A DNA stretch of 20,000 nt from an uncultured virus (IMG/VR IMGVR_UViG_3300028241_002116) (lineage: Duplodnaviria; Heunggongvirae; Uroviricota; Caudoviricetes), in IMG/VR virus record IMGVR_UViG_3300028241_002116; one strand, given 5' to 3'. Positions 4,813 through 20,000 of this stretch are shown one piece after another. The translations under genes and the position numbers were made by a program. The first letter of the stretch is position 1; the number at the start of each line of letters is the position of its first letter. Below the pieces are notes generated by a model. It was given only the letters and a program-made list of their open reading frames with translations. It had not been told where the DNA came from and ran no database searches.

Positions 4813-4841
4813 TTGACCTGTAAAAACAAATAATGTAAATA
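4813..4841 (+). promoter_or_regulatory. Putative sigma70 promoter
   Basis: TTGACC 4813-4818 followed by AT-rich sequence (taaata at 17 bp). Upstream context is shared with the promoters at 331 and 12505. Confidence 0.45.
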
Positions 4842-4850
4842 CAACGGATA

Positions 4851-4981
4851 TTAAAGAGACATAACCTAAACCTTGACCGGATTTATGTTTCTTTAAGAAA
4901 CTTACAAAGGCTTATAATTTTTGTGTTCGGTCAAGGCGATTTATTTATAAATCGGGAACATGAGATTATAAGCCTTTTTTT
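4851..4981 (+). ncRNA. Structured cis-regulatory leader: hairpin, then branched terminator-like hairpin with loop-junction pseudoknot
   Basis: P1 4851-4864/4883-4896. P2 begins aaaggcttataa at 4906 and closes ttataagccttt at 4977, then a T-run. Inner stem 4937-4954. Loop ccttgaccg (4871-4879) is complementary to cggtcaagg (4928-4936). Confidence 0.65.
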
Positions 4982-4991
4982 ATTTTAAGGA

Positions 4992-7487
4992 ATGAGGGAA
5001 ATGATTTTTGAACCACGTTATTACCAGAAAGAAGCGTTAGAAGCTCTTCAGGATTATACAGCTAATAATCACGGAAAGAATCCGATCATAGTGCTGCCCA
5101 CAGGTTGTATTTCGTGGGATAGTATAATAAACGAAAATAGAAACAAATTAGGACGGAAAAAACGCATTGAGACAATGTATAAAGGTTTTAATGGATTGAA
5201 CAAAAATCAAAAGCACAATTATGACAAAACATATAAAACTTTTGTTCGTTCTTTCAACGGAGAAAAAATAAAATTAAACGAAGTTGAATCTGTTTCGTAT
5301 AGTGGAATAAAAGATTTATTAAAATTAAAACTTGAAAACGGATTAGAATTAAAAGCTACACCTGATCATAAAATAATGACAAAGACTGGTTGGGTTAGAA
5401 TGTATAAGCTAACCACAGAACATGAAGTAATGTGTGACACTTTAAAACCTGAAAAAAAAGAAAATCATTCCTATGTTAAACATAATGATTTAATGATTTG
5501 TAATTTATGGTTTCATCCTTACGCAAAAAAAACAAAAACTAAAAAAGAAAAAAGAGGATATACTTTAAGAGTTGAAATTCATAGAGCAATATATGAATGT
5601 TATATAAATAATATTACATTAGATGAATATAAAAGAATTTTAAGAACAAACGATGAAAAAATAAAAGAAATGATTTTCATAGATCCATCAATCTATGATA
5701 TTCACCATAAAGATTTTAACCATAAAAATAACAATCCAGAAAATCTCATTAAACTAACAAAAAGAGAACATCAGGTTTTACATAGTGAACATTCTAAACA
5801 TAATTTTAATCAGGGAGTTCCAAAATATTCAAAAGTTTTATCAGTTAAATATTTTGGAAAAGATCATACTTACGATATAGGATGTTTTGAAAATCATAAT
5901 TTTGTTGCCAACGGAATAGTTGTTCATAACTCAGGCAAAGCTCTATTGCAAGCTATGATTGTTAAATGGATAATGGAATGGGATCATACAAAAATATTAT
6001 TGCTTACTCATCAGAAAGAACTTATAGTTCAGAACTCAGAAGAGTTTGTAAAACTTATGGATACACCTTTTCTTGATTATGGTATATATTCCGCAGGACT
6101 AAAAAAAAGAGAAAGAGGACATAGAATTTTATTTGCAGGGATTCAGAGTGTTTATAAAAGAGCGTGGTCTGATATTGGATTCAGAGATATTATACTTGTA
6201 GATGAAAGTCATCTTATTCCGCATGGAAACGATGGCATGTATCGGACGTTTATTTCTGAGATGAAAAAAATAAATCCTAAAATTATTATAGTGGGACTTT
6301 CCGCTACTCCATATCGTCTTAAAGGTGGATTATTAACAGAGGGTAAAAATAAATTATTTGATGATATTTGTTATGAAGTTACAATACCAGAACTGATAAA
6401 TCCTAATCATCCAAAAAATAAAGATAAAAAACAATATCTTGGAAGTATTATTACTCCTAAAAAAGCTATGAAATCAAGAGTGGATTTATCAGGAGTACAT
6501 ATAAAAGCCGGAGAATATGTTGAAAAAGAGATGCAGGATGCTTTCTGTAAAGATGATTTAGTCTCAAGATCTGTAAGAGAAATACTTGAATATGTTCAAG
6601 ATAGAAGAAAGATTTTAGTCTTTACAGCAGGGATAGAACACTGCGAACGAGTTGCTGAAACATTTAAAGAGTTTGATCAATCTGTCGGCTATGTTCACAG
6701 TCAAAGAACAGATATTGAAAATCAAAAAGTTCTCGAAGATTTTAAAACAGGAAAGATAAAGTTTTTAGTCAATGTTTCTATTCTTACAACTGGTTACAAT
6801 GTTAAAGATATAGATTGCATCGTACTAATGAGAGCAACACAAAGTCCAGGGCTTTACGTTCAAATGGTTGGAAGAGGCACAAGGCTTCATCCTTCAAAAG
6901 AAGATTGCTTAATACTCGATCTTGCTCACTGTATAGAAACTCACGGTCCGATTGACAAGATAGAAATTAAGAAACAAAAAGACGGAACAGCAAAAGCTGA
7001 AGGTATGCCGGAAAAGGTATGCCCATCCTGTGAATCAATGCTTGCTCTTGCTGTTATGGTCTGTCCTGATTGCGGTTATGAATTTCCGGTTAAAGATAAA
7101 CATGATGATACAGCGAGTGAAGCTGATATTATTTCTAAATGGAAAAGACCTGAGCCTTATGATGTTGAATATATACATTATTCAATACATCAGAAAATCG
7201 GATCTCCTGATATGCTGAGGGTGCAATATTACATAAGCGATCTTTATAGCTACAGCGAGTATATATGTCCGATGCACACAGGATTTGCAAAAAAGAAAGC
7301 GTTGCGATGGCTGGAGCTAAGGCTTCCGGTTGAAGATCTGGATAAGCCTTTATGCTCAATTCAGGATATAATAGATCATAAAGATAAAATTAAGCAACCG
7401 AAACAAATTATTGTTGATTTAAACGGCAAGTATCCTAACATAATAGGACATATTTTTGAGGAGAAGAAGGAACATGTCGCAGTATAG
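4992..7487 (+). CDS. SF2 DEAD/DEAH-box (YejH/RadD-like) helicase with intein and C-terminal Zn ribbon
   Basis: PRYYQ Q-motif, LPTG/SGK split by the intein, VDESH, LSATP, LTTGYN, QMVGRG.R, and CPSC..CPDCG. Confidence 0.93.
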   Translation: MREMIFEPRYYQKEALEALQDYTANNHGKNPIIVLPTGCISWDSIINENRNKLGRKKRIETMYKGFNGLNKNQKHNYDKTYKTFVRSFNGEKIKLNEVESVSYSGIKDLLKLKLENGLELKATPDHKIMTKTGWVRMYKLTTEHEVMCDTLKPEKKENHSYVKHNDLMICNLWFHPYAKKTKTKKEKRGYTLRVEIHRAIYECYINNITLDEYKRILRTNDEKIKEMIFIDPSIYDIHHKDFNHKNNNPENLIKLTKREHQVLHSEHSKHNFNQGVPKYSKVLSVKYFGKDHTYDIGCFENHNFVANGIVVHNSGKALLQAMIVKWIMEWDHTKILLLTHQKELIVQNSEEFVKLMDTPFLDYGIYSAGLKKRERGHRILFAGIQSVYKRAWSDIGFRDIILVDESHLIPHGNDGMYRTFISEMKKINPKIIIVGLSATPYRLKGGLLTEGKNKLFDDICYEVTIPELINPNHPKNKDKKQYLGSIITPKKAMKSRVDLSGVHIKAGEYVEKEMQDAFCKDDLVSRSVREILEYVQDRRKILVFTAGIEHCERVAETFKEFDQSVGYVHSQRTDIENQKVLEDFKTGKIKFLVNVSILTTGYNVKDIDCIVLMRATQSPGLYVQMVGRGTRLHPSKEDCLILDLAHCIETHGPIDKIEIKKQKDGTAKAEGMPEKVCPSCESMLALAVMVCPDCGYEFPVKDKHDDTASEADIISKWKRPEPYDVEYIHYSIHQKIGSPDMLRVQYYISDLYSYSEYICPMHTGFAKKKALRWLELRLPVEDLDKPLCSIQDIIDHKDKIKQPKQIIVDLNGKYPNIIGHIFEEKKEHVAV
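5106..5930 (+). mobile_element. Intein (275 aa) with an HNH endonuclease domain
   Basis: Starts at Cys (CISWDS, TGT 5106). Block B LKATPDHKI, block F TYDIGC..HNFVANG, ends VVHN (5930) followed by Ser +1. Internal IHHKDFNHKNNNPENL..H..H HNH motif. Confidence 0.93.
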
Positions 7488-7776
7488 AATATCTGAAGAG
7501 ACTATTGAAAAGCTGAATAAAATCTATGATTATTTTGGTGGAGGATCAAAGTCTGAATCTTTTGACAATAAGATTGAAAGGCTTTTTCTTGAAGCCGGAG
7601 AGTTCAGGGACGCTATTACACTGAAACAAAATTCAAAGAAAAGAAATAAAGAAATCACGGATTTAATTTCGTGTTGTCTGCAACTGCTTTTTAATAATGC
7701 AGAGATTCAGACACAACTGGAACAGACTATTGATTTTACAATTTCCAGGATCGAAAACGGTTATTATCAGCAATGA
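7456..7776 (+). CDS. MazG-like all-alpha NTP pyrophosphatase-like protein (start probably ATG 7474)
   Basis: LEAGEFRDA...KEITDL acidic helix pair. Confidence 0.45.
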   Translation: MRRRRNMSQYRISEETIEKLNKIYDYFGGGSKSESFDNKIERLFLEAGEFRDAITLKQNSKKRNKEITDLISCCLQLLFNNAEIQTQLEQTIDFTISRIENGYYQQ

Positions 7777-7898
7777 TCTGCTATAAATGCAAAACTGAAA
7801 TGATACGAGACAAAAAATCTAATAAAAATTCGCAGTTCTCTAAGGTCTGGATTTGCCCTAAGTGCAAGCATGAGACAATAGAGGAGAGCAATAAATAA
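7773..7898 (+). CDS. Small Zn-ribbon protein (41 aa)
   Basis: MICYKCKTEM...VWICPKCKHETIEESNK with two CxxC motifs; ATGA overlap with the previous stop. Confidence 0.65.
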   Translation: MICYKCKTEMIRDKKSNKNSQFSKVWICPKCKHETIEESNK

Positions 7899-7914
7899 CT
7901 ATGTTTACACACAC

Positions 7915-7993
7915 TCCCTGCGGTCAACCATCCTATAAAATCCGCAAAAAAGAACCGGCTGAGTATTGTTATATCGACCGCAGGGAATTTTTT
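7915..7993 (+). repeat. GC-rich 11-bp inverted repeat with a 50-nt spacer, followed by a T-run
   Basis: tccctgcggtc 7915-7925 / gaccgcaggga 7976-7986, then attttttt. Confidence 0.7.
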
Positions 7994-8011
7994 TATATAT
8001 GATAAAAATTG

Positions 8012-8041
8012 TTGACTTTTAAAAAAGGAGAGTTTTAAACT
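8012..8041 (+). promoter_or_regulatory. Putative sigma70 promoter for the HNH/primase unit
   Basis: TTGACT-18 bp-TAAACT. Confidence 0.45.
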
Positions 8042-8101
8042 ATGAGACATAACATTACTACGGTTCATTTTTAAGCTAAAATAAACAGATAAAAATATAC
8101 A

Positions 8102-8689
8102 ATGAAAGAGTACATTGATAAGACAATGAAAAAAGTCAAAGAAAAATGGAAAGATATAAAAGGTTATGAAGGTTTATACCAAATAAGTAATTATGGTAGA
8201 GTTAAATCTTTGCATAGAAAATGGATAGCAGCTAATGGAGGTAAACACGAACATGGTGATATAATTATGAAACAAGATTTTGATCCTAATGGTTATTTTT
8301 ATGTCAATTTTTATAAAAATAATAAAAAGAAAAAATTTAGAACACATAAATTAGTAGCATTGCATTTTGTTAAAAATATAAAAAACAAACCAGTTGTTAA
8401 TCATATAGATGGTGTAAAAAGCAATAATTATTATAAAAATCTTGAATGGGTAACTTTATCTGAAAATTCAATTCATGCTATTAAAAATAATCTATATGAA
8501 CATGTTAAAGGATCAGATGTAAAAAATTCAAAACTAACAGAATGGGATGTTTATGTAATAAGAAAACTTTATAAAAATACAAAATATTGGCATAAACAAA
8601 AAACAGTAGGTGAATTATTCGGCATATATAAATCACAGCATATAAGCGATATAATAAGAAACAAAACTTGGAAACATATTAAAGCATGA
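8102..8689 (+). CDS. NUMOD4-HNH homing endonuclease
   Basis: EKWKDIKGYEGLYQISNYGRVKS (NUMOD4), HKLVALHF, VNHIDGVKSNNYYKNLEWVT..EN..HA (HNH), and a C-terminal helical DNA-binding tail. Confidence 0.92.
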   Translation: MKEYIDKTMKKVKEKWKDIKGYEGLYQISNYGRVKSLHRKWIAANGGKHEHGDIIMKQDFDPNGYFYVNFYKNNKKKKFRTHKLVALHFVKNIKNKPVVNHIDGVKSNNYYKNLEWVTLSENSIHAIKNNLYEHVKGSDVKNSKLTEWDVYVIRKLYKNTKYWHKQKTVGELFGIYKSQHISDIIRNKTWKHIKA

Positions 8690-10818
8690 ATGAATTAATT
8701 GATAAATATATAGGTCAAGGCTTTAAAATATTTCCATGTAATGCTGATAAATCTCCAGCGACACCTAACGGTTTCAAAAACGCACATAATAATAGAGAAA
8801 TATTATACAAGCAATTTTATAAACCTGATATGTTAATTGGTCTGCCTTGCGGTGATGTCAATGGTATAGTCGTAGTTGACATAGACACAAAAGACGGTAG
8901 ATCAGTTGACGAGCTAAAAGAAGAAATCAGGCAATATGGCGAACTTCCTCCAACGTATGAAGTTGAAACTATGAATGGAGGTCGGCATCTTTATTATAAA
9001 GTTGATACAACAATTCTCAGCGCACATACACACTTCTTTGATAAATCCCTTCCGGTTGACCTCAGAGGAAACGGCTCTTATGTAATCGCAGGAGACTATC
9101 GGAAATATTTTCCACTTGATGTCGAAGATATTGATGACATTAAGCAGTACATGGCTGAATTGCCGGACTGGATAGAGAATTATAAAAAGAAAAATGAATA
9201 CAATGAAACACCGGAAGGCGAGTTTTTACCGGAATCAGAGGTAAGAGAACTCAGATCCGCTTTATCGTTCATATCCTCAGATGATCGGGAAATGTGGGTT
9301 AATGTCGGTATGGCATTAAAAAACACAAGATCAGTTCAGGCAAAAGGTATCTGGCTTGAATGGTCTATGAAGTCTGAAAAGTTTGATCCGCTTGACTCTG
9401 AAAAAAAATGGAAAACATTCAAGCCCTCTGATATTACCATTGCAACCATATTTCACATTGCTAAACAAAATGGATGGGTTACGACTTATGAAAACACTCC
9501 AACGATTTTAAATGAATCGCAAATAAACGAAAAGATAAAAGAAATAAAAACTTATGAGAAGAAACCGTTTCCGGTGGAATTGCTTAATCCCCCTGGACTT
9601 GTCGGTGATATTGCAAATTACATGAATTCACAGGCTCAGAGGGAACAGCCGATATTGTCTGTAGCTGCGTCACTGGCTTTCTGCGGTGCAATAATGGGAC
9701 GCAGATTTCAAGACGCTACGCAGATGAGAACTAATTTATATTGTATCGGTATCGGTGAAACCGGATGCGGTAAGGAAAACGCAAGGTCTGTTATTAAGCG
9801 TATAGTCATGGAGTGCAACGATGCAAAGATGGAGAATTTTTGTATGGTTGAAAATATTGCTTCAGAAACAAGTGTTTACAGTGCATTATCTCTTGATCCC
9901 TGTCAGTTGTTTCTGCTTGATGAAATAGGAATATTTCTAAAAAGTACGCAGAATAATAACGCCTCTCACCTTGCCGGAGTTCCAGCGGTTTTACTAAAAT
10001 TGTTTACCTCTGCTAATCAATGGGTATCCGGTAAAAGTTATGCCGACACAAAAAAACAAATACATCTTAATAATCCTAATTTATGTATTTATGGAACTGC
10101 AACGCCTAAACAATTTTTTGACTCTCTGTCAAAAGATAACGTGGAGCAAGGACTTTTGGGCCGCTTGCTCGTTTTCGAGTCAGAAGATCCACGACCTCCA
10201 GCGAGACGGTTTGTTAAATTTCAAAGACCTCCGAAAGATTTAGTCGATCACGTTAAAAGAATATTTGCCACAAAACCAAACGCTAATCCGGTCGGGAACG
10301 TCAGTATAGTCGAGACAGTTGATCCCCTTATAGTTCCCATGACTCAGGAAGCGGAAGAAATGATGTGGAATTTTACACTTGAAATTGATGAATATTATTT
10401 AAAGATAAAAAATTCAGGTAAGATTTATGAACTATATACCAGGTGTGTAGAAATTGCTAAAAAAATTGCGATGATAATAGCAATCGGCTGTGCTAAAGAT
10501 GGCGAGACTCCGATTATTAAGCCTGAACATGTTGACTATGCTGTTAAATTGTCAAGATTTTTGACTGACTCATTGCATGATGCTGTTGAATCTAAAATAT
10601 CGGATAATACACTTGAAAAAGAAGTTAAGAAAATGCTTAATCTTATCAGAAACAGTAAAAAGATTTCTCAATCAGACATTACAAGAAAATTTCAGCATTT
10701 AAAATCAGCGGAAAGAAAAGATATAATACACACGCTGATCGAGTCAAAGCATATTGAAGAGTTTATTGATACAAGCTCTTCAAAGCCGAAAAGATTTTAT
10801 ATAGCAATAGGAGAGTGA
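8686..10818 (+). CDS. Bifunctional primase-polymerase (Prim-Pol) with PriCT-2 and C-terminal helicase-like (DUF3987-type) domain
   Basis: IFPC..KSP, VVVDID, T.NGGRHLYY, DLRGNGSYVI; WVNVGMALK..W.EWS..SEKF..KWKTF (PriCT-2); GETGCGKE Walker A, LLDEIG Walker B, GLLGR. Confidence 0.9.
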   Translation: MNELIDKYIGQGFKIFPCNADKSPATPNGFKNAHNNREILYKQFYKPDMLIGLPCGDVNGIVVVDIDTKDGRSVDELKEEIRQYGELPPTYEVETMNGGRHLYYKVDTTILSAHTHFFDKSLPVDLRGNGSYVIAGDYRKYFPLDVEDIDDIKQYMAELPDWIENYKKKNEYNETPEGEFLPESEVRELRSALSFISSDDREMWVNVGMALKNTRSVQAKGIWLEWSMKSEKFDPLDSEKKWKTFKPSDITIATIFHIAKQNGWVTTYENTPTILNESQINEKIKEIKTYEKKPFPVELLNPPGLVGDIANYMNSQAQREQPILSVAASLAFCGAIMGRRFQDATQMRTNLYCIGIGETGCGKENARSVIKRIVMECNDAKMENFCMVENIASETSVYSALSLDPCQLFLLDEIGIFLKSTQNNNASHLAGVPAVLLKLFTSANQWVSGKSYADTKKQIHLNNPNLCIYGTATPKQFFDSLSKDNVEQGLLGRLLVFESEDPRPPARRFVKFQRPPKDLVDHVKRIFATKPNANPVGNVSIVETVDPLIVPMTQEAEEMMWNFTLEIDEYYLKIKNSGKIYELYTRCVEIAKKIAMIIAIGCAKDGETPIIKPEHVDYAVKLSRFLTDSLHDAVESKISDNTLEKEVKKMLNLIRNSKKISQSDITRKFQHLKSAERKDIIHTLIESKHIEEFIDTSSSKPKRFYIAIGE

Positions 10819-10822
10819 AAAC

Positions 10823-11407
10823 ATGAAAACAAAAATACTATGGCTTGATACTGAGACAACCGGAATTGATCCTTCGTTGCACTCGATAATAGAAATTGCC
10901 GGAATAATTGATATTGACGGAGTTCCAGAAAAAGAATTTTCATACAAGGTTCAGCCTCATAAAGATTTTGAAATTGATGAAGAGGCTTTGAATATTTCAA
11001 AAACTAAAAAGTCTGAGTTAAAAAATTATCTCGATATACCCACTGTTCATTCCTCACTGAAAAAGAATTTTTGTGAATTTGTCGATCCCTATAAAAAAGA
11101 AGATAAATTTATAATTGCAGGGCAGAAAATATCTTTTGACCTGAATTTTCTTTCTCATTTTTTTATGAGGCAAAACGACAATTTCTTAGGCTCTTATATT
11201 GATTTCAGAAAGAGAATAGAGCTACTGGATATAACCAGGGGACTCAGGGCTTTAGGGATAATAGAATCTCAGGATTCTAAGCTTGAAACGCTATGTAAAG
11301 AGTTCGGGATTGAAATTAAAGCCCATAGCGCACTATCAGATATAAAAGCTACAAGGGAGTTGTATTATATTTTTAAAAATGGAATAAATTTTAAGGTAGA
11401 GATATGA
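10823..11407 (+). CDS. DEDDh 3'-5' exonuclease (DnaQ-like)
   Basis: WLDTETTG, FDLNFL and AHSALSDI. Confidence 0.92.
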   Translation: MKTKILWLDTETTGIDPSLHSIIEIAGIIDIDGVPEKEFSYKVQPHKDFEIDEEALNISKTKKSELKNYLDIPTVHSSLKKNFCEFVDPYKKEDKFIIAGQKISFDLNFLSHFFMRQNDNFLGSYIDFRKRIELLDITRGLRALGIIESQDSKLETLCKEFGIEIKAHSALSDIKATRELYYIFKNGINFKVEI

Positions 11408-12426
11408 TACAATTATATAAAGGTGACTGTCTTGAAATAATGAAAATAATACCTGATAAGAGTGTAGATTTAATAATAGCCGATCCTCCTTATAATATTG
11501 GTAAAGCCGATTGGGATAAATGGAAAACTAAAGAAGATTATATTGAATGGTGCGGTTTATGGATTAAAGAAAGTGAAAGGCTTTTAAAAGATAATGGAAG
11601 TTTTTATTTTTTTCACAATGACATGACTCAAATAGCGATGCTTATGGAGTGGATAAGAAAAAACACTAAATTTGTTTTTAAGCAAATGATAGTATGGAAC
11701 AAAAGATTTGATAACGCAAAAAATAAAGGATTCTTAGATGGTTTTGTTGAAGTTGGAGGTTTGCGTAATTATCAAACAATGGCTGAATATTGTTTATTTT
11801 ATACTTTTCAAGATGAAACAGGATTAACTACGGTAATGCTTGATACAAATAATTTTAGCCCATTACGACAATATTTTAAAGATTTACAGGAATTTATTGG
11901 TTTAAATATAAAAGAAATAAATAAAAAATTAGGGCATAGAAAATCGGAACATGCTTTTTATTGGAAAACAACTCAATGGGATTTACCGACACCGGAAACG
12001 TATCAAGAATTAATCAATAGCTTCAATATAGATAAATGGGTTGCTTTTAGAGAATATGAATCGCTCCGGACAGAATATGAATCGCTCCGGACAGAATATG
12101 AATCGCTCCGGACAGAATATGAATCGCTCCGGTATATTTTTAATAACCAAAAAACACATCATTCAATATGGAATTATGAAATTGCAAAAAAGCAAGGACA
12201 CATAACGCCGAAGCCAATTGAACTCTTGGAAAACATTATTCTACATTCGAGCAATATAGATAATATTATTTTCGATCCTTTTATGGGTTCAGGCAGTACC
12301 GGAGTCGCTTGTGTAAATACAAATCGTAATTTTATCGGCATAGAAAAAGATAAAACTTATTTTGAGATAGCCAAGAAAAGAATTGATGAAGCTGAACAAA
12401 ATAAAAAGGAGGAGTTGTTTAAATGA
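11404..12426 (+). CDS. Beta-class N6-adenine/N4-cytosine DNA methyltransferase
   Basis: GDCLE, IADPPY, H.TPKP, DPFMGSGSTG and FIGIE; internal insertion carrying a heptad repeat. Confidence 0.93.
   Translation: MIQLYKGDCLEIMKIIPDKSVDLIIADPPYNIGKADWDKWKTKEDYIEWCGLWIKESERLLKDNGSFYFFHNDMTQIAMLMEWIRKNTKFVFKQMIVWNKRFDNAKNKGFLDGFVEVGGLRNYQTMAEYCLFYTFQDETGLTTVMLDTNNFSPLRQYFKDLQEFIGLNIKEINKKLGHRKSEHAFYWKTTQWDLPTPETYQELINSFNIDKWVAFREYESLRTEYESLRTEYESLRTEYESLRYIFNNQKTHHSIWNYEIAKKQGHITPKPIELLENIILHSSNIDNIIFDPFMGSGSTGVACVNTNRNFIGIEKDKTYFEIAKKRIDEAEQNKKEELFK
12051..12132 (+). repeat. 21-bp in-frame tandem repeat, 3 full copies plus 19/21
   Basis: agaatatgaatcgctccggac repeated; encodes EYESLRT. Confidence 0.95.
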
Positions 12427-12464
12427 CACAATTAAATCCCTGTCCATTTTACGAAGTGGAATAA
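12423..12464 (+). pseudogene. Possible remnant of a Lar-like Zn-finger gene
   Basis: Strong aggagg RBS and ATGA coupling, but only 13 aa (MTQLNPCPFYEVE). Resembles the L.PCPFCG start of Lar-family proteins. Confidence 0.35.
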
Positions 12465-12504
12465 AAGAACTTAATATTTTTTTCCTAAATAGTGAAAAAT
12501 TTTC

Positions 12505-12534
12505 TTGACATAACGATTTAATTAACGGTAATGT
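12505..12534 (+). promoter_or_regulatory. Sigma70 promoter
   Basis: TTGACA-18 bp-TAATGT, followed by aggag RBS. Confidence 0.6.
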
Positions 12535-12558
12535 TTATTAAAAAGGAGAGAGAAATAT

Positions 12559-12825
12559 ATGCCAAAATATTCACAACCTACACCGAAACAGATTAACTTT
12601 CTGGTAGAAACCGGAAGAGAATTTTCTCAGAGTATAGATCTGTCGGATTTTAAAGACGCTGAAACTCTCCCAGACAGAATGTTTTCTTTTGTCTGTGATA
12701 AAATTCTTAAATCTGAAGATAACGAAATTAAGATCGAGTTGTCACGGTTTTTAATGTTCAGAGGATATTCAGAGTTTATCAGTGTTTCGACAAAAGCATC
12801 ACTAATGGCACTCAAGGAAATGTAA
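12559..12825 (+). CDS. Hypothetical protein
   Basis: RBS aaggag and an upstream promoter. Confidence 0.7.
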   Translation: MPKYSQPTPKQINFLVETGREFSQSIDLSDFKDAETLPDRMFSFVCDKILKSEDNEIKIELSRFLMFRGYSEFISVSTKASLMALKEM

Positions 12826-12882
12826 TGCAATTTTACATTCTGCATAAAGACTGCTGGAATTTATTTTTTATAATCGAGGGAC

Positions 12883-13143
12883 ATGATGGTTAAGATTTCT
12901 GATCTCGAAAAAATAAGCAACAACCTGGAAAAATTGGAATATAAGATTTACAGTAAAATTCCAGAAATGTTTATTTTCAGGAAAGAGGGGAGCAGATTTG
13001 ACGTTGACTTAGAAACGCATGAAGTCAGATTTTATAAAAAGTTCCAGACTCAGAATAAATACAGGCATTGTAAAACTTATAGCTTCTCTGAATTTGCTGT
13101 TATCTCAGGGGACTGGATTAAGAAAAATTTAAAAGGAGAGTGA
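12883..13143 (+). CDS. Hypothetical protein
   Basis: gaggg RBS; coupled to the next ORF. Confidence 0.6.
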   Translation: MMVKISDLEKISNNLEKLEYKIYSKIPEMFIFRKEGSRFDVDLETHEVRFYKKFQTQNKYRHCKTYSFSEFAVISGDWIKKNLKGE

Positions 13144-13331
13144 AATTTATGAAAAACATCGACATGAAAGTAGAGGGAAACATTCTTACGATTAAAATTG
13201 ATTTATCAAAAGATTATGGTAAATCGTCCACTGGTAAAAGTATAATAATTGCCAGTACGGAAGGTAATCAGTCCGTTCCTGAATCTGATGCAAAGATCGG
13301 AGTTAATGTTTACAGGAAAGTTGAAAAGTGA
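13140..13331 (+). CDS. Small beta-rich hypothetical protein
   Basis: aaggag RBS; ILTIKIDLSK.YG.S.TGKSIIIAST.GN pattern. Confidence 0.7.
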   Translation: MKFMKNIDMKVEGNILTIKIDLSKDYGKSSTGKSIIIASTEGNQSVPESDAKIGVNVYRKVEK

Positions 13332-13504
13332 CTGAATACAACTATGGATCAATAGTCAACTCTCTCTGGAAATTATACGGAGAGAGAATGACTGATTGGG
13401 AGAGCGGTTTTATTGACGATATGATGAACTGGAAGGGTGAGTTTACAGATCGCCAGAAAGAAACCATTTTATCTATAAACAGAAAATACAGGGTGAAGAG
13501 ATGA
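13328..13504 (+). CDS. Small hypothetical protein (58 aa)
   Basis: GTGA overlap; ...MTDWESGFIDDMMNWKGEFTDRQKETI... Confidence 0.6.
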   Translation: MTEYNYGSIVNSLWKLYGERMTDWESGFIDDMMNWKGEFTDRQKETILSINRKYRVKR

Positions 13505-13653
13505 AAGTAATTCAAATTGTAGAATATAAAACAAGTTCTGTGGTTAAAGAAATAGATGTTACAGGAAAACTCGAAAGACAGATTGAAAAAATAGATTCAG
13601 GAATAAATATAAACCTGAATCACGAAAAATTTTTTACGAGAATAAAAGAATAA
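13501..13653 (+). CDS. Small hypothetical protein (50 aa)
   Basis: ATGA overlap; MKVIQIVEYKTSSVVKEIDVTGK... Confidence 0.6.
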   Translation: MKVIQIVEYKTSSVVKEIDVTGKLERQIEKIDSGININLNHEKFFTRIKE

Positions 13654-13666
13654 AAAAAGAGAGAAT

Positions 13667-14134
13667 ATGAGTAATTTTGATAAAAACAGATTCGATTCAA
13701 AATCAATAGAATATGAAACACCAGACAGTTTATTCCAGAAATTAAATAGAGAATTTAATTTTACGGTAGATGTTTGTGCCACAAAAGAAAATACTAAAGT
13801 TCCTTTTAAATATTTTACAAAAGAAAATAATGGACTTATTCAAGATTGGAAAAATGAAGTTTGTTGGATGAATCCTCCTTATGGAAGAGAAATGTTATTT
13901 TGGCTAAAAAAGGCGAAATATGAATCCGAAAACAATAACAGTATAATTGTAGCTTTAATCCCTGCAAGAACTAATACTAAATGGTGGGGGGAAATATGTT
14001 TACAATCTTCTGAAATACGATTTATTCAAGGAAGACCAAAATTTAATAATGGAAAACATGGTTTGCCTTTTCCTCTGGCTATTATTGTTTTTAATGGTAA
14101 TAAAAATTGCAAAATGAGTTGTTTTAAGCAGTAA
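13667..14134 (+). CDS. Phage N6-adenine DNA methyltransferase (phage Dam-like)
   Basis: YETP..LF..L..EF.FTVDVCA, W..EVCWMNPPY, LIPARTNT.WW and IRFI.GR.KF. Confidence 0.9.
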   Translation: MSNFDKNRFDSKSIEYETPDSLFQKLNREFNFTVDVCATKENTKVPFKYFTKENNGLIQDWKNEVCWMNPPYGREMLFWLKKAKYESENNNSIIVALIPARTNTKWWGEICLQSSEIRFIQGRPKFNNGKHGLPFPLAIIVFNGNKNCKMSCFKQ

Positions 14135-14137
14135 CAT

Positions 14138-14171
14138 CACTTAATTGCCCTTTTGTGATTAAGTGTTTTTT
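14138..14171 (+). terminator. Rho-independent terminator
   Basis: cacttaattgc-cctttt-gtgattaagtg stem followed by T6, directly after the stop codon. Confidence 0.65.
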
Positions 14172-14298
14172 GAGAATACCTATATACGGCTTTCAGACTG
14201 CATATAAAGCACGATATAAAGCCCTATTTTTATCAATATCAAGGGGATTGTTTTAAAATTTTAGACTTAATACAGATTAAACCAAAAGGAGGTTTTTG

Positions 14299-14463
14299 AT
14301 GAGATACCACAGCAGTAATTATTACGACAGACCTAATCCTCACTCTTTCGGAGATACCGGAACTATGCACAGACAGCAGAAAGCAGAAAAAGAGGAGTTT
14401 AAAAGAGAAGAGATGCAAAAAGAATTAAACCAGGAAGACAGAGAGGAGAAGGTAAAGAAATGA
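14299..14463 (+). CDS. Small charged hypothetical protein (54 aa)
   Basis: AAGGAGG RBS; MRYHSSNYYDRPNPHSFGDTG...; ATGA-coupled to the next gene. Confidence 0.7.
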   Translation: MRYHSSNYYDRPNPHSFGDTGTMHRQQKAEKEEFKREEMQKELNQEDREEKVKK

Positions 14464-14669
14464 AAAAATTTAAAATACCCGATCCCCCGAAAGGTATGAT
14501 GTATAACACAGATAAAAGAAAAATAGATATAGTCGCAGATGGTCTGCAAAAGACCGGAGGGTATTGCCCTTGTGTTCCGAAGCATCTGCATAATATTTCA
14601 ACTAAGTGTCCGTGTGTTGACGCAAAAGTTGAAAATAATTGCAGATGCGGAATTTTTATTAAAGCATAA
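14460..14669 (+). CDS. Ferredoxin-thioredoxin reductase catalytic-subunit-like protein
   Basis: GYCPC...CPC...CRCGIF mirrors the CPC/CPC/CHC 4Fe-4S signature. Confidence 0.75.
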   Translation: MKKFKIPDPPKGMMYNTDKRKIDIVADGLQKTGGYCPCVPKHLHNISTKCPCVDAKVENNCRCGIFIKA

Positions 14670-14713
14670 ATAAATAATTTTCCGATAATAAAAATAAAAG
14701 ACAGGAGGTTACA

Positions 14714-14950
14714 TTGAAAAAGTTATTTCGCAGAAACGATTCAGTAATTACATGTAAAAAGTGTAGACAAAAAACAGAAATAGGTTATAACTTTCTACAG
14801 ACTGAGAGTTATGAAGCGTTCACGGAAGAAATGAAAAAAGAAAGTCTATGTCCTAAATGTCTTATGAGGCGTAAAATTGATGCAATGGTTGAGCATGATC
14901 CAGTGCTGATTGAAACAGCAAAAAACATGATAGGAGTTGGTGTGATATGA
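14714..14950 (+). CDS. Hypothetical Zn-binding protein
   Basis: AGGAGG RBS, TTG start, CKKC...CPKC. Confidence 0.65.
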   Translation: MKKLFRRNDSVITCKKCRQKTEIGYNFLQTESYEAFTEEMKKESLCPKCLMRRKIDAMVEHDPVLIETAKNMIGVGVI

Positions 14951-15141
14951 ACGAGAAAGAAATTATAATTGAAAGCAAATTGGAAACAAAAGCGCATGAC
15001 ATTGATTATCTTCTGAATTGCGCTAACTGTTTTCATTTTATATTCTTTGCAGGATCTGACTGTGTATGTGTCCTGGATAAAAAGATTGTAAATCCACGTT
15101 CAAAATGCGACAAGCACAGGATAAACAGAGATGATAACTAA
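14947..15141 (+). CDS. Hypothetical Cys-rich protein
   Basis: CANC..C..C pattern; ATGA overlap. Confidence 0.55.
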   Translation: MNEKEIIIESKLETKAHDIDYLLNCANCFHFIFFAGSDCVCVLDKKIVNPRSKCDKHRINRDDN

Positions 15142-15298
15142 GATATTTTTCGGGTTATGGGCTTTTGCGAGTATATATTTTTTATACTCAGACAGTATTT
15201 TCGGATTGATACTATTTGCAGTCTGTTTTCTCGCTGTTATTTTTTGTTTATTACATAAGCTTGTTAAAACTACAAAAGGGAGGATTATAATAAAATGA
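15131..15298 (+). CDS. Small protein with two predicted membrane helices (55 aa)
   Basis: MITKIFFGLWAFASIYFLYSDSIFGLILFAVCFLAVIFCLLHKLVKTTKGRIIIK. Confidence 0.55.
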   Translation: MITKIFFGLWAFASIYFLYSDSIFGLILFAVCFLAVIFCLLHKLVKTTKGRIIIK

Positions 15299-15453
15299 GT
15301 ATAATTGAAATTTTTATTTTTTTGCTAATAATGGGTGTCACTGCAACAATAGCGGAGGGTTCAGGATACAAAAAAGGGAGATCGGATAAATTGCAGGAAA
15401 TTAAATTCAGACTTAAAGGAGTTCTGACAGATGAAGAAATGGAAAATCTTTGA
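15295..15453 (+). CDS. Small membrane-anchored protein (52 aa)
   Basis: ggagg RBS, ATGA overlap; MSIIEIFIFLLIMGVTATIAEGSGYKKG... Confidence 0.6.
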   Translation: MSIIEIFIFLLIMGVTATIAEGSGYKKGRSDKLQEIKFRLKGVLTDEEMENL

Positions 15454-15847
15454 TTTCCTGAAACGCAGACACGATCTGAAATTAGCAATTATTGAAAGAG
15501 AACGAACTCAGGCTACAAAGGAACGGCTTTTACTCATAAGGCAACACGAAAAAGAGATGTTGCGACAGAAAGAAGATTTAAAAAAAGAATTCGATAAGCA
15601 CCTAAACGAAAGCTTAGAGGCAAAAGATAGCCAGATCAGAGACTTAAAAAAGCTGATCCGGTTTATAAAAAATTCATCCGAAAATATTCAGATATTGAGC
15701 AACGAATTTGAAATTGAGTTAAAATCTCTGCTTGTTATACTCGGCAAAATGCAAAACAGATTCAGTAATATCGAGCATAGAGCTTTTAGAGAAACTCAAA
15801 AGCTGGAAAAGAAAGTGGATAGATTTTTACAGGAAGATCCTGTATAA
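15431..15847 (+). CDS. Coiled-coil hypothetical protein
   Basis: 138-aa E/K/R/L-rich ORF within the operon. Confidence 0.65.
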   Translation: MKKWKIFDFLKRRHDLKLAIIERERTQATKERLLLIRQHEKEMLRQKEDLKKEFDKHLNESLEAKDSQIRDLKKLIRFIKNSSENIQILSNEFEIELKSLLVILGKMQNRFSNIEHRAFRETQKLEKKVDRFLQEDPV

Positions 15848-15873
15848 TATTACTTAATGGAGATTATGGAATA

Positions 15874-16020
15874 ATGGAAATAATTGAGGTGAAACAATAT
15901 CGAAGTGAAAATAGAAAAGTTAATCAATCCTGTGACAAGGTACGAGTAATATTAGATATGACCCAAAATGATTATTACAAGTTATTGACTTTCATAAAAC
16001 AGGAGGAGAGCGATGAGTGA
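15874..16020 (+). CDS. Small hypothetical protein (48 aa)
   Basis: MEIIEVKQYRSENRK...; overlaps the start of the next gene. Confidence 0.5.
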   Translation: MEIIEVKQYRSENRKVNQSCDKVRVILDMTQNDYYKLLTFIKQEESDE

Positions 16021-16276
16021 ATTAAAAGAAGAGGTATTTCTGATAAATAAATTAAAAAACAATTGCTTAGTAAAATTAAGAGAAAATTGTCATAAAGAAC
16101 ACTGGAAAACTCTAACTAAAGATGATTGTATAAATAGAATACATGAAGAATTAACGGAATTATTAAATGCTATAGATTGGAATAAAAATCCAGAAGAAGT
16201 TTGGAGAGAAGCTTCCGATGTTTGTAATTTTTTAGCTTTTCTTGCCGATAATTACGAAAATAATATAATTACTTAA
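16013..16276 (+). CDS. MazG-like NTP pyrophosphohydrolase-domain protein
   Basis: RIHEELTEL...REASDVCNF (EExxE...ExxD); aggagg RBS. Confidence 0.65.
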   Translation: MSELKEEVFLINKLKNNCLVKLRENCHKEHWKTLTKDDCINRIHEELTELLNAIDWNKNPEEVWREASDVCNFLAFLADNYENNIIT

Positions 16277-16316
16277 CTTATATTACGTAATATAAAATAA
16301 AAATGAGAAAAATTAG

Positions 16317-16424
16317 ATGGAAATAAAAACTTGTGATAATTGTGATAATAAAAATTGTTTTTTAACAATTAAACCATGTTACAATTTCTTTATGTGGTAT
16401 AAGGAAAAAAACCATGACAGATAA
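16317..16424 (+). CDS. Possible Cys-rich micro-protein (35 aa)
   Basis: MEIKTCDNCDNKNCFLTIKPCYNFFMWYKEKNHDR; fills the gap but the RBS is weak. Confidence 0.35.
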   Translation: MEIKTCDNCDNKNCFLTIKPCYNFFMWYKEKNHDR

Positions 16425-17277
16425 CCTCCCGATTGTTAAAACCCAGGAACAGCCGATTGATCTACCAGCAGTGGTAGATCGTTTGCGTTTAACGCCTGAG
16501 ACTAAGAAAACGTATAAATTCGCCATGAATTCTTACCGGAATTATTGCCAGAAACATAAAAAAGAAGCTGATATGAATTCTCTACTGGACTGGATTGAAT
16601 CAATGCCCTCTCCCTATACGCAAGCCACTTATATTGCAGCGATTAAAAAGGTATTATCTGAGGTCTATAAATACGATCCACGTCTTGTAGAATTAAAAGA
16701 TAACCTTGAGAAAATAAGACCTGTAAAGATGAATAAAACTATAACTGAGTCAAAATATCTTAAAAAAGATGAAATCCAGGAGATTATTAAACTTGCATCA
16801 CCCAAAATAAGCATAATAATCGAGACTTTATTCATTACCGGACTTAGAATATCTGAGTTAATTAACCTGAAGTATGAAAATTGCACTCTTTTAAAAAATA
16901 AAAAAATATATGAATGCAGAATTATCGGTAAAGGAAGAAAAGAAAATGTAGTTCTAATTCCTGTAATATTGTATAAAAAAATCACAAAAAATTTTGAAGG
17001 GATTAACAATTCTGTTTACCTGTTTTCGCATGACTCTGGAAAAAGGTATTCAAGGGAATATTTAACCAGAGAGATTAAAAAAATGGGTGAGGCAATTGGT
17101 AGACCTGAAATTCATGCACATACCATAAGACATTCAAGAGCGATGGATTTAGCCGATAGAGGAGTAAGTCTTGATAAAATAAGTAAATTTTTAAATCATT
17201 CGTCAATTAATACAACTGCTGGATTTTACCTTCATGATCGTCCGAGTGCAGAAGAGTTAGGTTTATTGGATGAGTAG
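16414..17277 (+). CDS. Tyrosine recombinase (XerC/D-like size)
   Basis: TGLRISEL (R), GKGRKE (K), HTIRHS (HxxR), LNHSSINTTAGFY (H, Y). Confidence 0.92.
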   Translation: MTDNLPIVKTQEQPIDLPAVVDRLRLTPETKKTYKFAMNSYRNYCQKHKKEADMNSLLDWIESMPSPYTQATYIAAIKKVLSEVYKYDPRLVELKDNLEKIRPVKMNKTITESKYLKKDEIQEIIKLASPKISIIIETLFITGLRISELINLKYENCTLLKNKKIYECRIIGKGRKENVVLIPVILYKKITKNFEGINNSVYLFSHDSGKRYSREYLTREIKKMGEAIGRPEIHAHTIRHSRAMDLADRGVSLDKISKFLNHSSINTTAGFYLHDRPSAEELGLLDE

Positions 17278-17366
17278 TAATTTTTTACTTGACTTTTATA
17301 TTAAAAAATAGTTATATATTATCAAGACAACACTTTTTCATTAAAAACTCTCCTTTTTTTGCAGAG

Positions 17367-17390
17367 AAGCCCTGATTTTAGGGCTTTTTT
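17367..17390 (+). terminator. Rho-independent terminator between convergent units
   Basis: aagccctg-attt-tagggctt followed by T-rich sequence; overlaps the C5-MTase stop. Confidence 0.65.
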
Positions 17391-18565
17391 GTTTGTATAT
17401 AAGAAAATATATGTGCTATTACGTCTACAGTCCATCCGTTGCCTAAACATTTATATTGCTGAGAATTACTGATTATATTATTGCCATTTTCATCTTTAAA
17501 ATAATTATCCGGTACTGTTTGCAATCTGCAACATTCTAACGGTGTCAATTTTCTCCATGTGATATTATCAGTGGTTGCATCAAGCCCGAATCTTTCAGAC
17601 CTCAATGTCGGTGATTTTTCATTATAAATTCTTTCCGCTCTATTATTATAGATTGAATCTTTTATAGCTATTTTCGGCTCATGATGTCCGCCCTGACAAG
17701 TATTTAAACAAGGGCTTTTCCCTTCGACTGAATAAACTCTTTTTATTGAGTCGGTACCTTTTAAATCAGCTTTTCCTATTTCAATACACAAACTATCTTT
17801 ACTTACGCTCGTTAAAGCGTTTGATTTTCCGGTTTCGTTTATTTCTAATTTTTGTTGAGTATTTTTTATTTCTCCACGTCCGCGGATTGCGCCGCCGGTT
17901 ATAATTCCTTGATGTATTCCTTTTTCTAAATATCTGTCAGGTGTAAATTTTCCATCATATCCGGCAAGCAGACAACAACTTTTATTTCTGTCAACTTCTC
18001 CATTCTCAATAATATCCTTCAACAAAATTCCTTTATCTTTCGGCTGCGTAATCCCCTGTATATTTGTCCAGTATAACCGCCGTCTATTTTGTGCGCTGAC
18101 TAAAGCTGAATTTATTTCAATCGGTTCAAGCCTGCCGGTTCTGAAAAGTTCAGTCTGATGCACACATTCAGGATAAATCTCTCCTAATATTCCGCTGATA
18201 ACATCATTGTATTCAGCTTTCATAATTACATTTTCAAGTAAAAAATATTTCGGTTTGTAATGTTTGAGAATATCAACAAAAGTAAAAAATAGTTTTGACC
18301 GTTCATCTTCAAAATTTAATTGCTTACCGGCAAAACTAAAACCCTGGCATGGGGAACCACCAATTATTATATCAGGTTGCTCGATATTCCATGATTGCCA
18401 TTCTGTTATACTACCAAGCTGAACAGTATCGGGATAATTTGCCATAGTTACTTGAATTGCATATTTATCAATCTCACTTGCATAATATTTTTCTATCGGT
18501 ATTCCTGCACGTTCAAAAGCAATTTGACCACACGACATCCCGTCGAAGAGACTTAACACCACCAT
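17378..18565 (-). CDS. C5-cytosine DNA methyltransferase
   Basis: LSLFDG, GGSPCQ, FLLENV, AQNRRRLYW, RKLTPLEC.RLQ and LGNGW. Confidence 0.95.
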   Translation of the reverse strand: MVVLSLFDGMSCGQIAFERAGIPIEKYYASEIDKYAIQVTMANYPDTVQLGSITEWQSWNIEQPDIIIGGSPCQGFSFAGKQLNFEDERSKLFFTFVDILKHYKPKYFLLENVIMKAEYNDVISGILGEIYPECVHQTELFRTGRLEPIEINSALVSAQNRRRLYWTNIQGITQPKDKGILLKDIIENGEVDRNKSCCLLAGYDGKFTPDRYLEKGIHQGIITGGAIRGRGEIKNTQQKLEINETGKSNALTSVSKDSLCIEIGKADLKGTDSIKRVYSVEGKSPCLNTCQGGHHEPKIAIKDSIYNNRAERIYNEKSPTLRSERFGLDATTDNITWRKLTPLECCRLQTVPDNYFKDENGNNIISNSQQYKCLGNGWTVDVIAHIFSYIQTKKP

Positions 18566-18587
18566 ATATTTTTATAGATTTCCTTTT

Positions 18588-18806
18588 TTATAATCCGAAG
18601 CTTTTAGCACAATTTTCAGCGGCACTTATACCACCTTCCTTTACACAGGCTATACCAATATTTATTTCTCTATTCCAATCCCTTTTACTCATTTCGGATA
18701 GAGACTGACCGGGGAGCATAACATAAGCCAGAACATGACGTGGATCAATATTTATCCTGTTTTTCTTTTCCAGTTCTTCTTTTACGATGTTTAAATAATA
18801 ATTCAT
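18588..18806 (-). CDS. Hypothetical protein
   Basis: aaggag RBS at 18818-18813 and an upstream promoter. Confidence 0.7.
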   Translation of the reverse strand: MNYYLNIVKEELEKKNRINIDPRHVLAYVMLPGQSLSEMSKRDWNREINIGIACVKEGGISAAENCAKSFGL

Positions 18807-18834
18807 AAAAAGTCTCCTTGTTTTTAATTATTAA

Positions 18835-18863
18835 ACATTATATTTTTCAAGATTATTTGTCAA
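18835..18863 (-). promoter_or_regulatory. Sigma70 promoter driving the small ORF and C5-MTase
   Basis: TTGACA (18863-18858)-17 bp-TAATGT (18840-18835). Confidence 0.7.
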
Positions 18864-18943
18864 TAATAATATGTAAAAAATATTCACTTTTTATATTTTT
18901 CATCAATTTTAATTCAAATTTGAATAATCATAACATACAGTAT

Positions 18944-19651
18944 TTAATTAAAAGTCAATCCGTAGCCGTTTTTTATTTTTTTCAAAATTCCTTTTTTGAC
19001 CATATCATTTAATATCTTGGTTCTGAGCGTGGAGGAAAGTCGTGGTGTTTTCTGCTCTATATCCGATAAAGACATTTCAGCTTCAGGATTATTGTCAAAA
19101 ATTAAAGTTTCAATAAGCTCTGAGAAGTATTGCTCAATGGTTAAACCATTATATTCAAATAGCATATTTTCAAGTCTTTCAAAAAGTAAAGCTTTTGATT
19201 TAAAACTTTCCGCAATCTTCCACGATTCTTCTTTATGATTAGATAATACATTGTTATCAATAGCCAATCTTCTTTTTTCTCTGATTTCTAATTGAAGTTG
19301 TTTTTCTTTTTCTTCAAGAAGTTTATTGATTGCTGTTTTTAAATTCTTTTCTGACTCAATAAGTTTTTTTCTTAAATCTCCAGCCTTTTCATTGTTTTCA
19401 CCAGTTGCTATTAATATCGCTGCAATTTTTGAAAAATAATATTCCTGAAGTGGTCTTCCATTTTCTGTTTTTTCAGAAACAATAATATAATCCTGATGTT
19501 CTATAAAATTATATTTTTCAATTCGATCTTTAATCCACGTTGAAAAATCTTTTCCAATTTCAAAAAATGAATGCAATCCCCTGGCATTTACTGTATCAAT
19601 TCCCTCTTTTTCTGAGAACTCAATTTCATTAGAAATCATTAAATCATTCAT
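18944..19651 (-). CDS. antA: AntA/AntB-family antirepressor with coiled coil and C-terminal winged-helix-like domain
   Basis: VNARGLHSFFEIGKDFSTWIKDRIEKYNFIEHQDY...GRP..EYY is the AntA signature. C-terminal LNDMVKKGILKKIKNGY is wHTH-like. Confidence 0.85.
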   Translation of the reverse strand: MNDLMISNEIEFSEKEGIDTVNARGLHSFFEIGKDFSTWIKDRIEKYNFIEHQDYIIVSEKTENGRPLQEYYFSKIAAILIATGENNEKAGDLRKKLIESEKNLKTAINKLLEEKEKQLQLEIREKRRLAIDNNVLSNHKEESWKIAESFKSKALLFERLENMLFEYNGLTIEQYFSELIETLIFDNNPEAEMSLSDIEQKTPRLSSTLRTKILNDMVKKGILKKIKNGYGLTFN

Positions 19652-19670
19652 GTTTATACCACCTTAAATT

Positions 19671-19776
19671 AAAAAAGGCTATTTACCAACAGACCGTTTC
19701 CGGTTAGCCCCTGTTTGATAAATAGCCTTTAATTTTAAAACATACAGGTAAGGGGCTATCAAACCTCTATGTTTTA
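19671..19776 (-). ncRNA. Structured cis-regulatory leader with the same architecture as 4851-4981
   Basis: On -: taaaacatagaggt-ttga-TAGCCCCT-t-acctgtatgtttta; linker; aaaggctatttatcaaac-AGGGGCTA-accg gaaa cggt-ctgttggtaaatagccttt-ttt. Confidence 0.65.
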
Positions 19777-19783: not shown

Positions 19784-19811
19784 AATATATATCATTACAT
19801 AGTATTGTCAA
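19784..19811 (-). promoter_or_regulatory. Sigma70 promoter for the antA leader
   Basis: TTGACA (19811-19806)-16 bp-TATATT (19789-19784). Confidence 0.55.
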
Positions 19812-19968: not shown

Positions 19969-20000
19969 ATCAGTTCTATTTAAGAAAATTCTAAAGCTCA

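Follow-up and report, generated by a model that had tools for sequence, protein, structure and literature searches.

Two promoter-proximal leader RNAs of an uncultured phage belong to a family whose first hairpin loop is complementary to the predicted terminator that follows

Temperate phages keep their antirepressor and replication helicase genes tightly off. In the 20,000-nt stretch of the uncultured virus record IMGVR_UViG_3300028241_002116 analyzed here (the window), genes encoding a superfamily 2 (SF2) helicase and an AntA protein are each preceded by a leader of the same layout, at 4851-4981 on the plus strand and at 19776-19671 on the minus strand. Do these leaders represent a conserved RNA element, and what might such an element do for the two operons?

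By sequence comparison, both leaders are members of a family of phage promoter-proximal leader RNAs that is absent from Rfam, and this family is a real, conserved RNA element. Its layout is a sigma-70-type promoter, a first hairpin (HP1) with a GC-rich loop word of 7-10 nt, a linker of 5-13 nt, a second hairpin (P2) holding the exact complement of the word, a run of 6-7 U, a Shine-Dalgarno (SD) sequence and the gene.

Anatomy and kinship of the leaders

The promoter predicted for the helicase leader, with hexamers assigned by eye, consists of TTGACC (4813-4818), a 17-nt spacer and TAAATA (4836-4841) on the plus strand, an arrangement that the orthologous leaders also have ahead of HP1. In the minimum free energy (MFE) fold, HP1 has a 14-bp stem including one G.U pair (4851-4864 with 4883-4896) and an 18-nt loop that carries the word CCTTGACCGG (4871-4880). 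After a 9-nt linker (4897-4905), the 72-nt long terminator hairpin P2 (4906-4977) begins with AAAGGCT and ends with AGCCTTT; its lower stem has 16+6 pairs and one bulged U. The receptor CGGTCAAGG, the exact complement of the loop word, lies in an asymmetric internal loop of P2 (4928-4936). The fold leaves GGTCAAGG at 4929-4936 unpaired, which together with C4928 is the exact complement of CCTTGACCG. An inner hairpin (4937-4954) sits atop P2, and seven T (4975-4981) and the SD sequence AAGGA (4987-4991) follow. From the SD spacing and the N-termini of relatives, ATG 5001 is the more likely start of the SF2 helicase over ATG 4992.

The antA leader lies on the minus strand. Its promoter (19784-19811; TTGACA 19811-19806, 16 nt, TATATT 19789-19784) matches 11 of 12 positions and ranks first of 95 promoter-like sites in the window, a class that is not enriched (92.3 expected). 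In the MFE fold, HP1 has 12 positions, namely 11 pairs and one G.G mismatch (19775-19764 with 19748-19737), and a 15-nt loop with the word TAGCCCCT (19758-19751). P2 again forms a terminator hairpin (19730-19674), with the receptor AGGGGCTA in its internal loop (19712-19705) and an inner hairpin, ACCGGAAACGGT, closed by a GAAA tetraloop (19704-19693) and identical in all three antA-type leaders. Six T (19676-19671), the SD sequence AAGGTGG (19665-19659) and ATG 19651 of the antA gene follow (AntA domain, E 2.1e-16). The sequence-only reading of this DNA had described the common layout and the exact complement of the loop word in the P2 junction, and sequence and folds agree with both; its 14-bp first hairpin is right for the helicase leader but not for the antA leader.

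The G.G mismatch occupies the same place in the three antA-type leaders (window, L278 and L264), and a G.G also occurs in HP1 of L208 and G002_ant, two relatives described below. The GAAA tetraloop and the mismatch of the antA type may mark a tertiary contact or a protein site.

Both leaders are predicted to fold stably, the helicase leader at -38.7 kcal/mol (z -5.08) and the antA leader at -43.4 kcal/mol (z -5.07), and none of 200 shuffles of each was as stable. The frame AAAGGCT-N30-60-AGCCTTT is found twice in the window, against 0.01 expected. By itself, P2 reaches -25.0 kcal/mol in the helicase leader and -26.1 kcal/mol in the antA leader, within a range of -25 to -42 kcal/mol across the leaders, and its stable hairpin followed by seven or six T predicts an intrinsic terminator in both. 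The sense fold was more stable than the antisense fold in 8/8 leaders tested, by 0.6 to 19.5 kcal/mol; the G.U pairs are responsible, in keeping with the strand preference proposed earlier.

Covariance models indicate that the two leaders share their architecture by descent, since the model of each type finds the other type. Model R1 was built from three helicase leaders (window, L001 and L002) and run with filters off; L001 and L002, found with the Pif1 helicase as probe, carry the orthologous helicase leader, and L002 lies in G002 (85,750 bp, complete). The best non-self match of R1 in the window, of 21 matches, was the antA leader (30.0 bits, E 5.6e-4). Model R2, built from the three antA-type leaders only, had the helicase leader as its best non-self match in G001 (30.4 bits, E 2.4e-4). 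G001 is the nearest virus record (80,451 bp, linear, 94% complete) and has all sampled words in common with the window; it stood in as the whole genome for genome-wide word and model searches, and both model and descriptor searches found only two leader copies in it.

The search of other phages extended the family and supplied further words and compensatory changes. G002 holds a second leader before a Bro-N gene (G002_ant, 39 bits). Whole-record searches and pattern scans added L208 (the same as G003; 76.8 bits), L264 (39.9 bits) and L214 (35.2 bits), and a pattern scan added L278 (the same as G006; 35,175 bp, complete), in which R2 detected a second leader, G006b (29.2 bits). The family thus comprises 10 distinct leaders with 8 word pairs in related uncultured phages, and exact or near-exact repeats of leaders occur in four more loci (L125/L250 and L216/L269/L271). 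In L214 (about 700-740, minus strand), HP1 is only 4-5 bp long and the anatomy is less certain; its receptor word (CTGTCAG) is repeated upstream of HP1, within the putative promoter spacer, and this further copy can pair with the loop word.

The last two viral pattern scans yielded one new record and then none. Three more distant helicase relatives (39-50% identity) all lack a leader before the helicase gene, a strict 3'-end pattern gave 0 matches in genome contigs, and a loose descriptor scan of five phage records returned many chance pairs of AT-rich 7-8-mers and no further convincing copy. The pattern CCTTGACC-N40-70-GGTCAAGG hit at least 119 loci in viral contigs; none was homologous by nhmmer, and we attribute these hits to chance. 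About 50 of 115 loci in the metagenome pattern scan proved to be an unrelated 63-nt terminator element (L150 and about 50 other loci, mostly gut metagenome contigs). In this widespread element, the 3' half of the terminator contains TGAATTGTTT, the complement of a AAACAATTCA further upstream, and the arrangement looks like that of an ordinary antiterminator. A 24-bit match at the window's far end was considered as a third copy in G001 and rejected, as it is a palindrome around NN and no leader. The palindrome itself (L131, about 15125-15145, in G001) is perfect and reads TTAAGAAAATTCTAAAGCT NN AGCTTTAGAATTTTCTTAA; it may reflect a join made during assembly or a fold-back end.

In cmscan searches of all 4227 families of Rfam 15 (E up to 10 for the window, up to 1 for six other leader loci), no leader was matched. 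The only overlap was a sub-threshold SraG match over the antA promoter, at 24.4 bits against a gathering score of 50. Phage annotation currently misses this leader family because it is absent from Rfam.

A -35-like hexamer, TTGAC or TTTAC, precedes all 10 leaders, and a plausible -10 element lies 16-18 nt away in nine; by eye, those of L208 and L278 are weaker. HP1 begins a few nucleotides from the predicted transcript start. An SD sequence and a start codon follow the U-run within about 20 nt in every leader. Domain annotation of the downstream genes bears out the earlier view that the leaders stand before replication and antirepressor genes. The 11 leader-gene junctions comprise the SF2 helicase (3), AntA (1), a helix-turn-helix (HTH) protein with ANT/KilAC (1), Bro-N (2) and Rha (1), so that antirepressor-type genes account for 5/11; the others are a lysine-rich zinc-ribbon-like protein (2) and an HNH-like protein (1), all without a Pfam hit. 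One leader sequence lies before the helicase in L001 and before the zinc-ribbon gene in L216, L269 and L271. Because the same leader precedes different genes, the leader cassette moves as a module.

Covariation and the pairing words

Compensatory changes were counted within each type, in a helicase-type alignment of 4 sequences that was fitted to the model (A8; one row is one column off in P2, so that counts are if anything low) and in a MAFFT alignment of 3 antA-type sequences. MAFFT alignments mixing both types misaligned the antA copy and were excluded from the counts.

In the helicase type, 93.0% of 201 cells are paired and 21/52 pairs changed on both sides; 0/500 shuffles reached any of five measures, and sliding the partners by 1-3 columns lowered the pairing to 39-58%. 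Double changes occur in 8/15 pairs of HP1 and 11/22 pairs of the P2 lower stem across the four leaders, and the inner hairpin has one among the relatives, from G-C to A-U. The pseudoknot helix between loop word and receptor, which we also call the kissing helix, has 8 pairs with 96.9% of cells paired and one double change, from U-A to C-G in L208. The antA type behaves similarly. Here 90.6% of cells are paired and 12/41 pairs changed on both sides (HP1, 4/12; P2 lower stem, 6/17; three leaders), while none of 500 shuffles was as high on four measures and 2/500 were on the fifth. Between the window and L278, the kissing helix carries two double changes (A-U to U-A and G-C to C-G) with pairing kept. 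In the two Bro-N-type leaders the word changed from AG to GA and the receptor changed to match.

From one subtype to another the words differ wholesale; the eight words are CCUUGACCGG, CCUCGACCG, UAGCCCCU, UUCCCCCU, UCUACCC, CCUAGCCGG, CCUGACCG and CUGACAGG. These data agree with the earlier proposal of a conserved structure with wholesale covariation of the words, now with compensatory changes in the stems and in the loop-receptor helix among 10 leaders and 8 word pairs; the words of the two window leaders are indeed unrelated in sequence. Among the four helicase-type orthologues the word is identical in three while the stems drift.

These results bear on whether the two leaders are merely ordinary terminators that look alike by chance, or inverted repeats that act at the DNA level as the operator of a protein. 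The window holds no excess of terminator-like hairpins as a class (9 against 9.1 expected), as that explanation would allow. We nevertheless find it scarcely credible in view of the reciprocal model matches, the compensatory changes in all helices and the G.U pairs that make the sense strand the stabler one in every leader tested. The spacing from word to receptor also varies by hand count (51, 55 and 53 nt in three helicase orthologues), which is unsuited to a dimeric DNA-binding protein.

The words pair strongly with their own receptors. The loop-receptor duplex has a predicted energy of -18.6 kcal/mol in the helicase leader, reached by 0/1000 shuffled loops, and of -15.1 kcal/mol in the antA leader, reached by 3/1000. 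The helicase kissing helix can be extended to 11 pairs by invasion of three positions of the P2 upper stem. Cognate duplexes range from -11.3 to -18.6 kcal/mol, while 84 different-word pairs average -7.2 kcal/mol. In the three genomes with two leaders (G001, G002 and G006), self pairing amounts to -14.9 to -18.6 kcal/mol and cross pairing to -5.1 to -9.8 kcal/mol. The mutual orthogonality proposed earlier therefore stands within these genomes, but not across phages: between the helicase word and the G006b receptor, duplex energies are -14 to -17 kcal/mol, in two cases at least as strong as those of the helicase word with its own receptor.

The 10-mer CCTTGACCGG occurs once in the window and once in the 80-kb genome, and the helicase word and its complement are both confined to the helicase leader in the whole genome. 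Three other TAGCCCCT 8-mers occur in the genome, all within coding sequence and none at a ribosome-binding site (RBS). No conserved leader peptide was found, ATGAGATTATAA of the window's P2 having no counterpart in L002. A natural variant of the helicase leader, present in two sequencing runs (X15, an RNA-library contig, and X3, a DNA contig), has several changes, all within the inner hairpin at 4937-4954. One RNA-library contig spans 4745-5247 and so crosses the terminator; such libraries can contain DNA, and contigs show no RNA ends.

Attenuation and its rivals

Because the elements follow in the order promoter, HP1, terminator and RBS, the leaders can be read as transcription attenuators controlled by the kissing helix, a reading to which we give about an even chance. 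Transcription yields the receptor some 45 nt before it completes the terminator, so that the kissing helix could form first. The lower stem of about 20 bp would then wind poorly inside the loop closed by that helix. The winding of a helix inside a closed loop is limited, as in CopA-CopT kissing complexes, and kissing would for this reason delay closure of the lower stem and favor read-through into the helicase or antirepressor genes. Masking of the loop word would lead to termination, and each word would be a separate address for its operon. We infer that P2 terminates, that kissing acts in this direction and that a masking factor exists, be it a further copy of the leader RNA, a different RNA or a protein. 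The leaders probably gate the replication and antirepressor genes.

Of the designs studied so far, the guanidine-IV riboswitch (the mepA motif) comes nearest to this one. In it, the loop of an upstream hairpin kisses the loop of the terminator hairpin and hinders completion of the terminator stem, which results in read-through, so that terminator and kissing loop compete (PMC11611296). The leaders likewise consist of two adjacent hairpins, the second an intrinsic terminator, and the loop of the first is complementary to that of the second. The Bro-N-type leaders G002_ant and G006b, in which the receptor is the terminal loop of P2 and not an internal loop, have exactly the terminal-loop-to-terminal-loop layout of guanidine-IV. 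In the window leaders, by contrast, the receptor sits in an internal loop some 20 bp above the base of the terminator, beneath an extra hairpin. Conserved loop nucleotides of guanidine-IV bind guanidine, whereas the leaders have 7-11 Watson-Crick pairs, words that differ by subtype (loops of 8 kinds among 10 leaders) and no obvious need of a ligand. Guanidine-IV precedes guanidine exporters; the leaders precede SF2 helicase, AntA, ANT/KilAC, Bro-N and Rha genes. Rfam includes a mepA model, and the leaders had no match there.

Several points weigh against attenuation by kissing. P2 is very stable alone, at the -25 to -42 kcal/mol given above, and neither word nor receptor is paired in the MFE fold, so the final RNA may contain P2 and the kissing helix together; in that case kissing could stabilize rather than oppose the terminator. 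A kissing helix of 7-11 pairs needs no ligand, and the default would be read-through, which would leave the terminator without evident purpose absent a masking factor. A search of the 80-kb genome, of the kind that the sequence-only reading had proposed, turned up no further copy of either word fit for a trans RNA. The identity of the word in three of four helicase-type orthologues, against a background of drifting stems, hints at a sequence-specific partner over a purely cis-acting helix. Finally, the covariation sets hold four and three sequences, and alignment A8 was fitted to the model.

Coexistence of the two helices would suit a structural element without switching, in which HP1, held by the kissing helix against a constitutive, leaky terminator, would form a compact 5' structure that sets the level of read-through and protects the 5' end of the mRNA or the short RNA from nucleases. 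An HP1 of 12-16 bp, a lower P2 stem of about 20 bp and a linker of 5-13 nt would allow P2 and the kissing helix together. The start of HP1 close to the predicted transcript start also fits, as 5' hairpins stabilize mRNAs in Firmicutes, and the GAAA tetraloop and conserved G.G mismatch of the antA type are features of a compact tertiary fold. We still think this unlikely, for a mere stabilizer would have no need of a terminator downstream of the promoter and ahead of the gene, the regular placement before antirepressor-type and replication genes points to control, and kissing loop and terminator compete in the published guanidine-IV architecture.

The attenuator reading also has to be compared with the small RNAs of temperate phages, to which the leaders had been tentatively likened. 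Membership of the c4/CI family is unsupported because no Rfam family matches, C4, c4-2 and c4-a1b1 among them. A likeness lies in the design: as with c4, P4 CI and N15, the leader RNA of an antirepressor or replication operon carries a loop complementary to a downstream site on the same transcript, and specificity resides in short words that differ between related phages. N15 reportedly has a small processed RNA. The c4 RNA acts once processed and has two words (a' and b'), whose targets overlap the RBS of the following gene; the leaders differ in having one word, whose sole complement is in the apical loop of the terminator and not at the RBS.

By the logic of P4 CI, P1/P7 c4 and N15 CA, the leader could give rise to an immunity RNA in trans. 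A terminated or processed leader would accumulate, its word or receptor would pair with nascent leader transcripts of the phage itself or of an incoming relative and force termination, and the word would be the immunity specificity of each operon. The weak cross pairing between the two differing words of each of the three genomes speaks for this, but different words per genome may just reflect an old divergence of two subtypes. That the word is more conserved than the stems among the helicase orthologues fits matching in cis and in trans; word and receptor can, however, pair with each other in a released RNA, which would leave it inert. The second receptor word upstream of HP1 in L214 recalls the seqA/seqB/seqC arrangement of P4 CI RNA. 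Leaders stand before antirepressor genes, as does c4, which controls Ant (PMC8201110), and as reportedly does the small processed RNA of N15. With no C4-type match in Rfam, no processing signal known and a P2 with U-run that should terminate unaided, we regard a trans-acting immunity RNA as unlikely. Equally doubtful is the broader idea of an RNA-only lock and key, in which terminated leaders would silence the same-word antirepressor and replication operons of the phage itself and of incoming relatives, not different-word ones. Each operon would have its own channel, and new immunity types would arise via paired mutations of loop and receptor.

Other precedents resemble the leaders in part. 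In the countertranscript and pseudoknot control of plasmid replication, loop-loop contacts decide between terminator formation and replication-gene expression in pT181/pIP501 attenuation, and in IncI-alpha repZ a long-range pseudoknot between a loop and a distal site is an activator that antisense RNA can block. In these systems the antisense RNA comes from the opposite strand, whereas the complementary word of the leaders is on the same strand; no antisense promoter at the leaders stood out in the window promoter scan. A "tug-of-war" form of antitermination has been described in which an upstream RNA structure without sequence overlap suppresses intrinsic termination if the spacer is short (bioRxiv 10.64898/2026.06.17.733018). 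The leaders likewise have a structure just upstream of the terminator, with spacers of 5-13 nt. In that form the upstream element is a ligand-bound aptamer, a plain hairpin or a pseudoknot, without base pairing to the terminator, which sets it apart from the leaders.

A protein could also be the reader. As a platform for N/nut-like or put-like antitermination, the leader would load a phage or host factor onto RNA polymerase, which would then read through P2 and later terminators. With two copies per genome placed directly behind early promoters, the leaders recall putL/putR and nutL/nutR, and the conserved non-canonical features (the G.G mismatch and the GAAA loop) would suit such a platform. 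With the words varying wholesale, however, a protein would read shape only; no candidate RNA-binding antiterminator was recognized among the 22 open reading frames (ORFs) of the window, and Rfam gave no match. We consider a protein platform very unlikely.

Should the kissing helix of the attenuator set read-through, the leaders would be a ligand-free, sequence-addressable version of the guanidine-IV design placed on the most dangerous early genes of these phages. Attenuation of this kind would mean that uncultured wastewater and digester phages control lysis-lysogeny and superinfection at the RNA level as well, and would explain how two operons in one genome are gated independently. It would also offer synthetic biology a natural set of mutually non-interfering terminator switches.

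The phage and its genome

ORF and domain annotation identify the window as the replication and early region of an uncultured phage. Among its products are a Cas4-like exonuclease, YopX, an HU-like protein, a Pif1-type helicase, the intein-bearing SF2 helicase and an HNH endonuclease, together with a primase-polymerase, an exonuclease, several DNA methyltransferases, a tyrosine integrase and AntA. DNA akin to the window is present in sequencing runs from wastewater, anaerobic digesters and activated sludge.

At the DNA level, neither the window nor any of its leaders matched a cultured phage, and protein searches found only distant relatives among these phages. No relative of AntA was found in viral contigs, and the Pif1-helicase alignment found nothing in metagenomes. 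As a probe of genomes, the Pif1 helicase gave only three 32-residue matches, in metagenome-assembled genomes of Clostridia/Bacillota. Model R2 had 0 matches in these three genomes and 151 sampled genomes of the same class, a negative confined to the genomes searched.

The SF2 helicase gene (4992-7487) contains an intein with an HNH module (Intein_splicing and HNH_3, residues 56-313), and its relatives in L001 and L143 (558 and 562 aa) lack the intein. Four DNA methyltransferases of different classes lie inside the 20 kb, MT-A70, N6_N4, Dam and C5 (2373-2912, 11404-12426, 13667-14134 and 17378-18565), which suggests a heavy investment in anti-restriction.

Just upstream of the antA promoter, at 19846-19970 of the window, are three copies of a unit of about 30 nt ending in AAATTACAAATTACC. 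Further copies of the motif, in either orientation, are spread over a non-coding gap of about 1.1 kb, which continues in L131 (14700-15330) and separates the antA operon from divergent genes for a winged HTH protein, a RusA-like protein and the small and large terminase subunits. G002 has an analogous gap with a different repeat. These gap repeats might act as operators or iterons, or mark a pac or partition site. G002 also carries a tRNA gene (L135, 14544-14616; 59.2 bits) and a second, weak tRNA (L135, 15528-15659), which is overlapped by a sub-threshold Y RNA-like (YrlA) match of 30.6 bits against a gathering score of 69.

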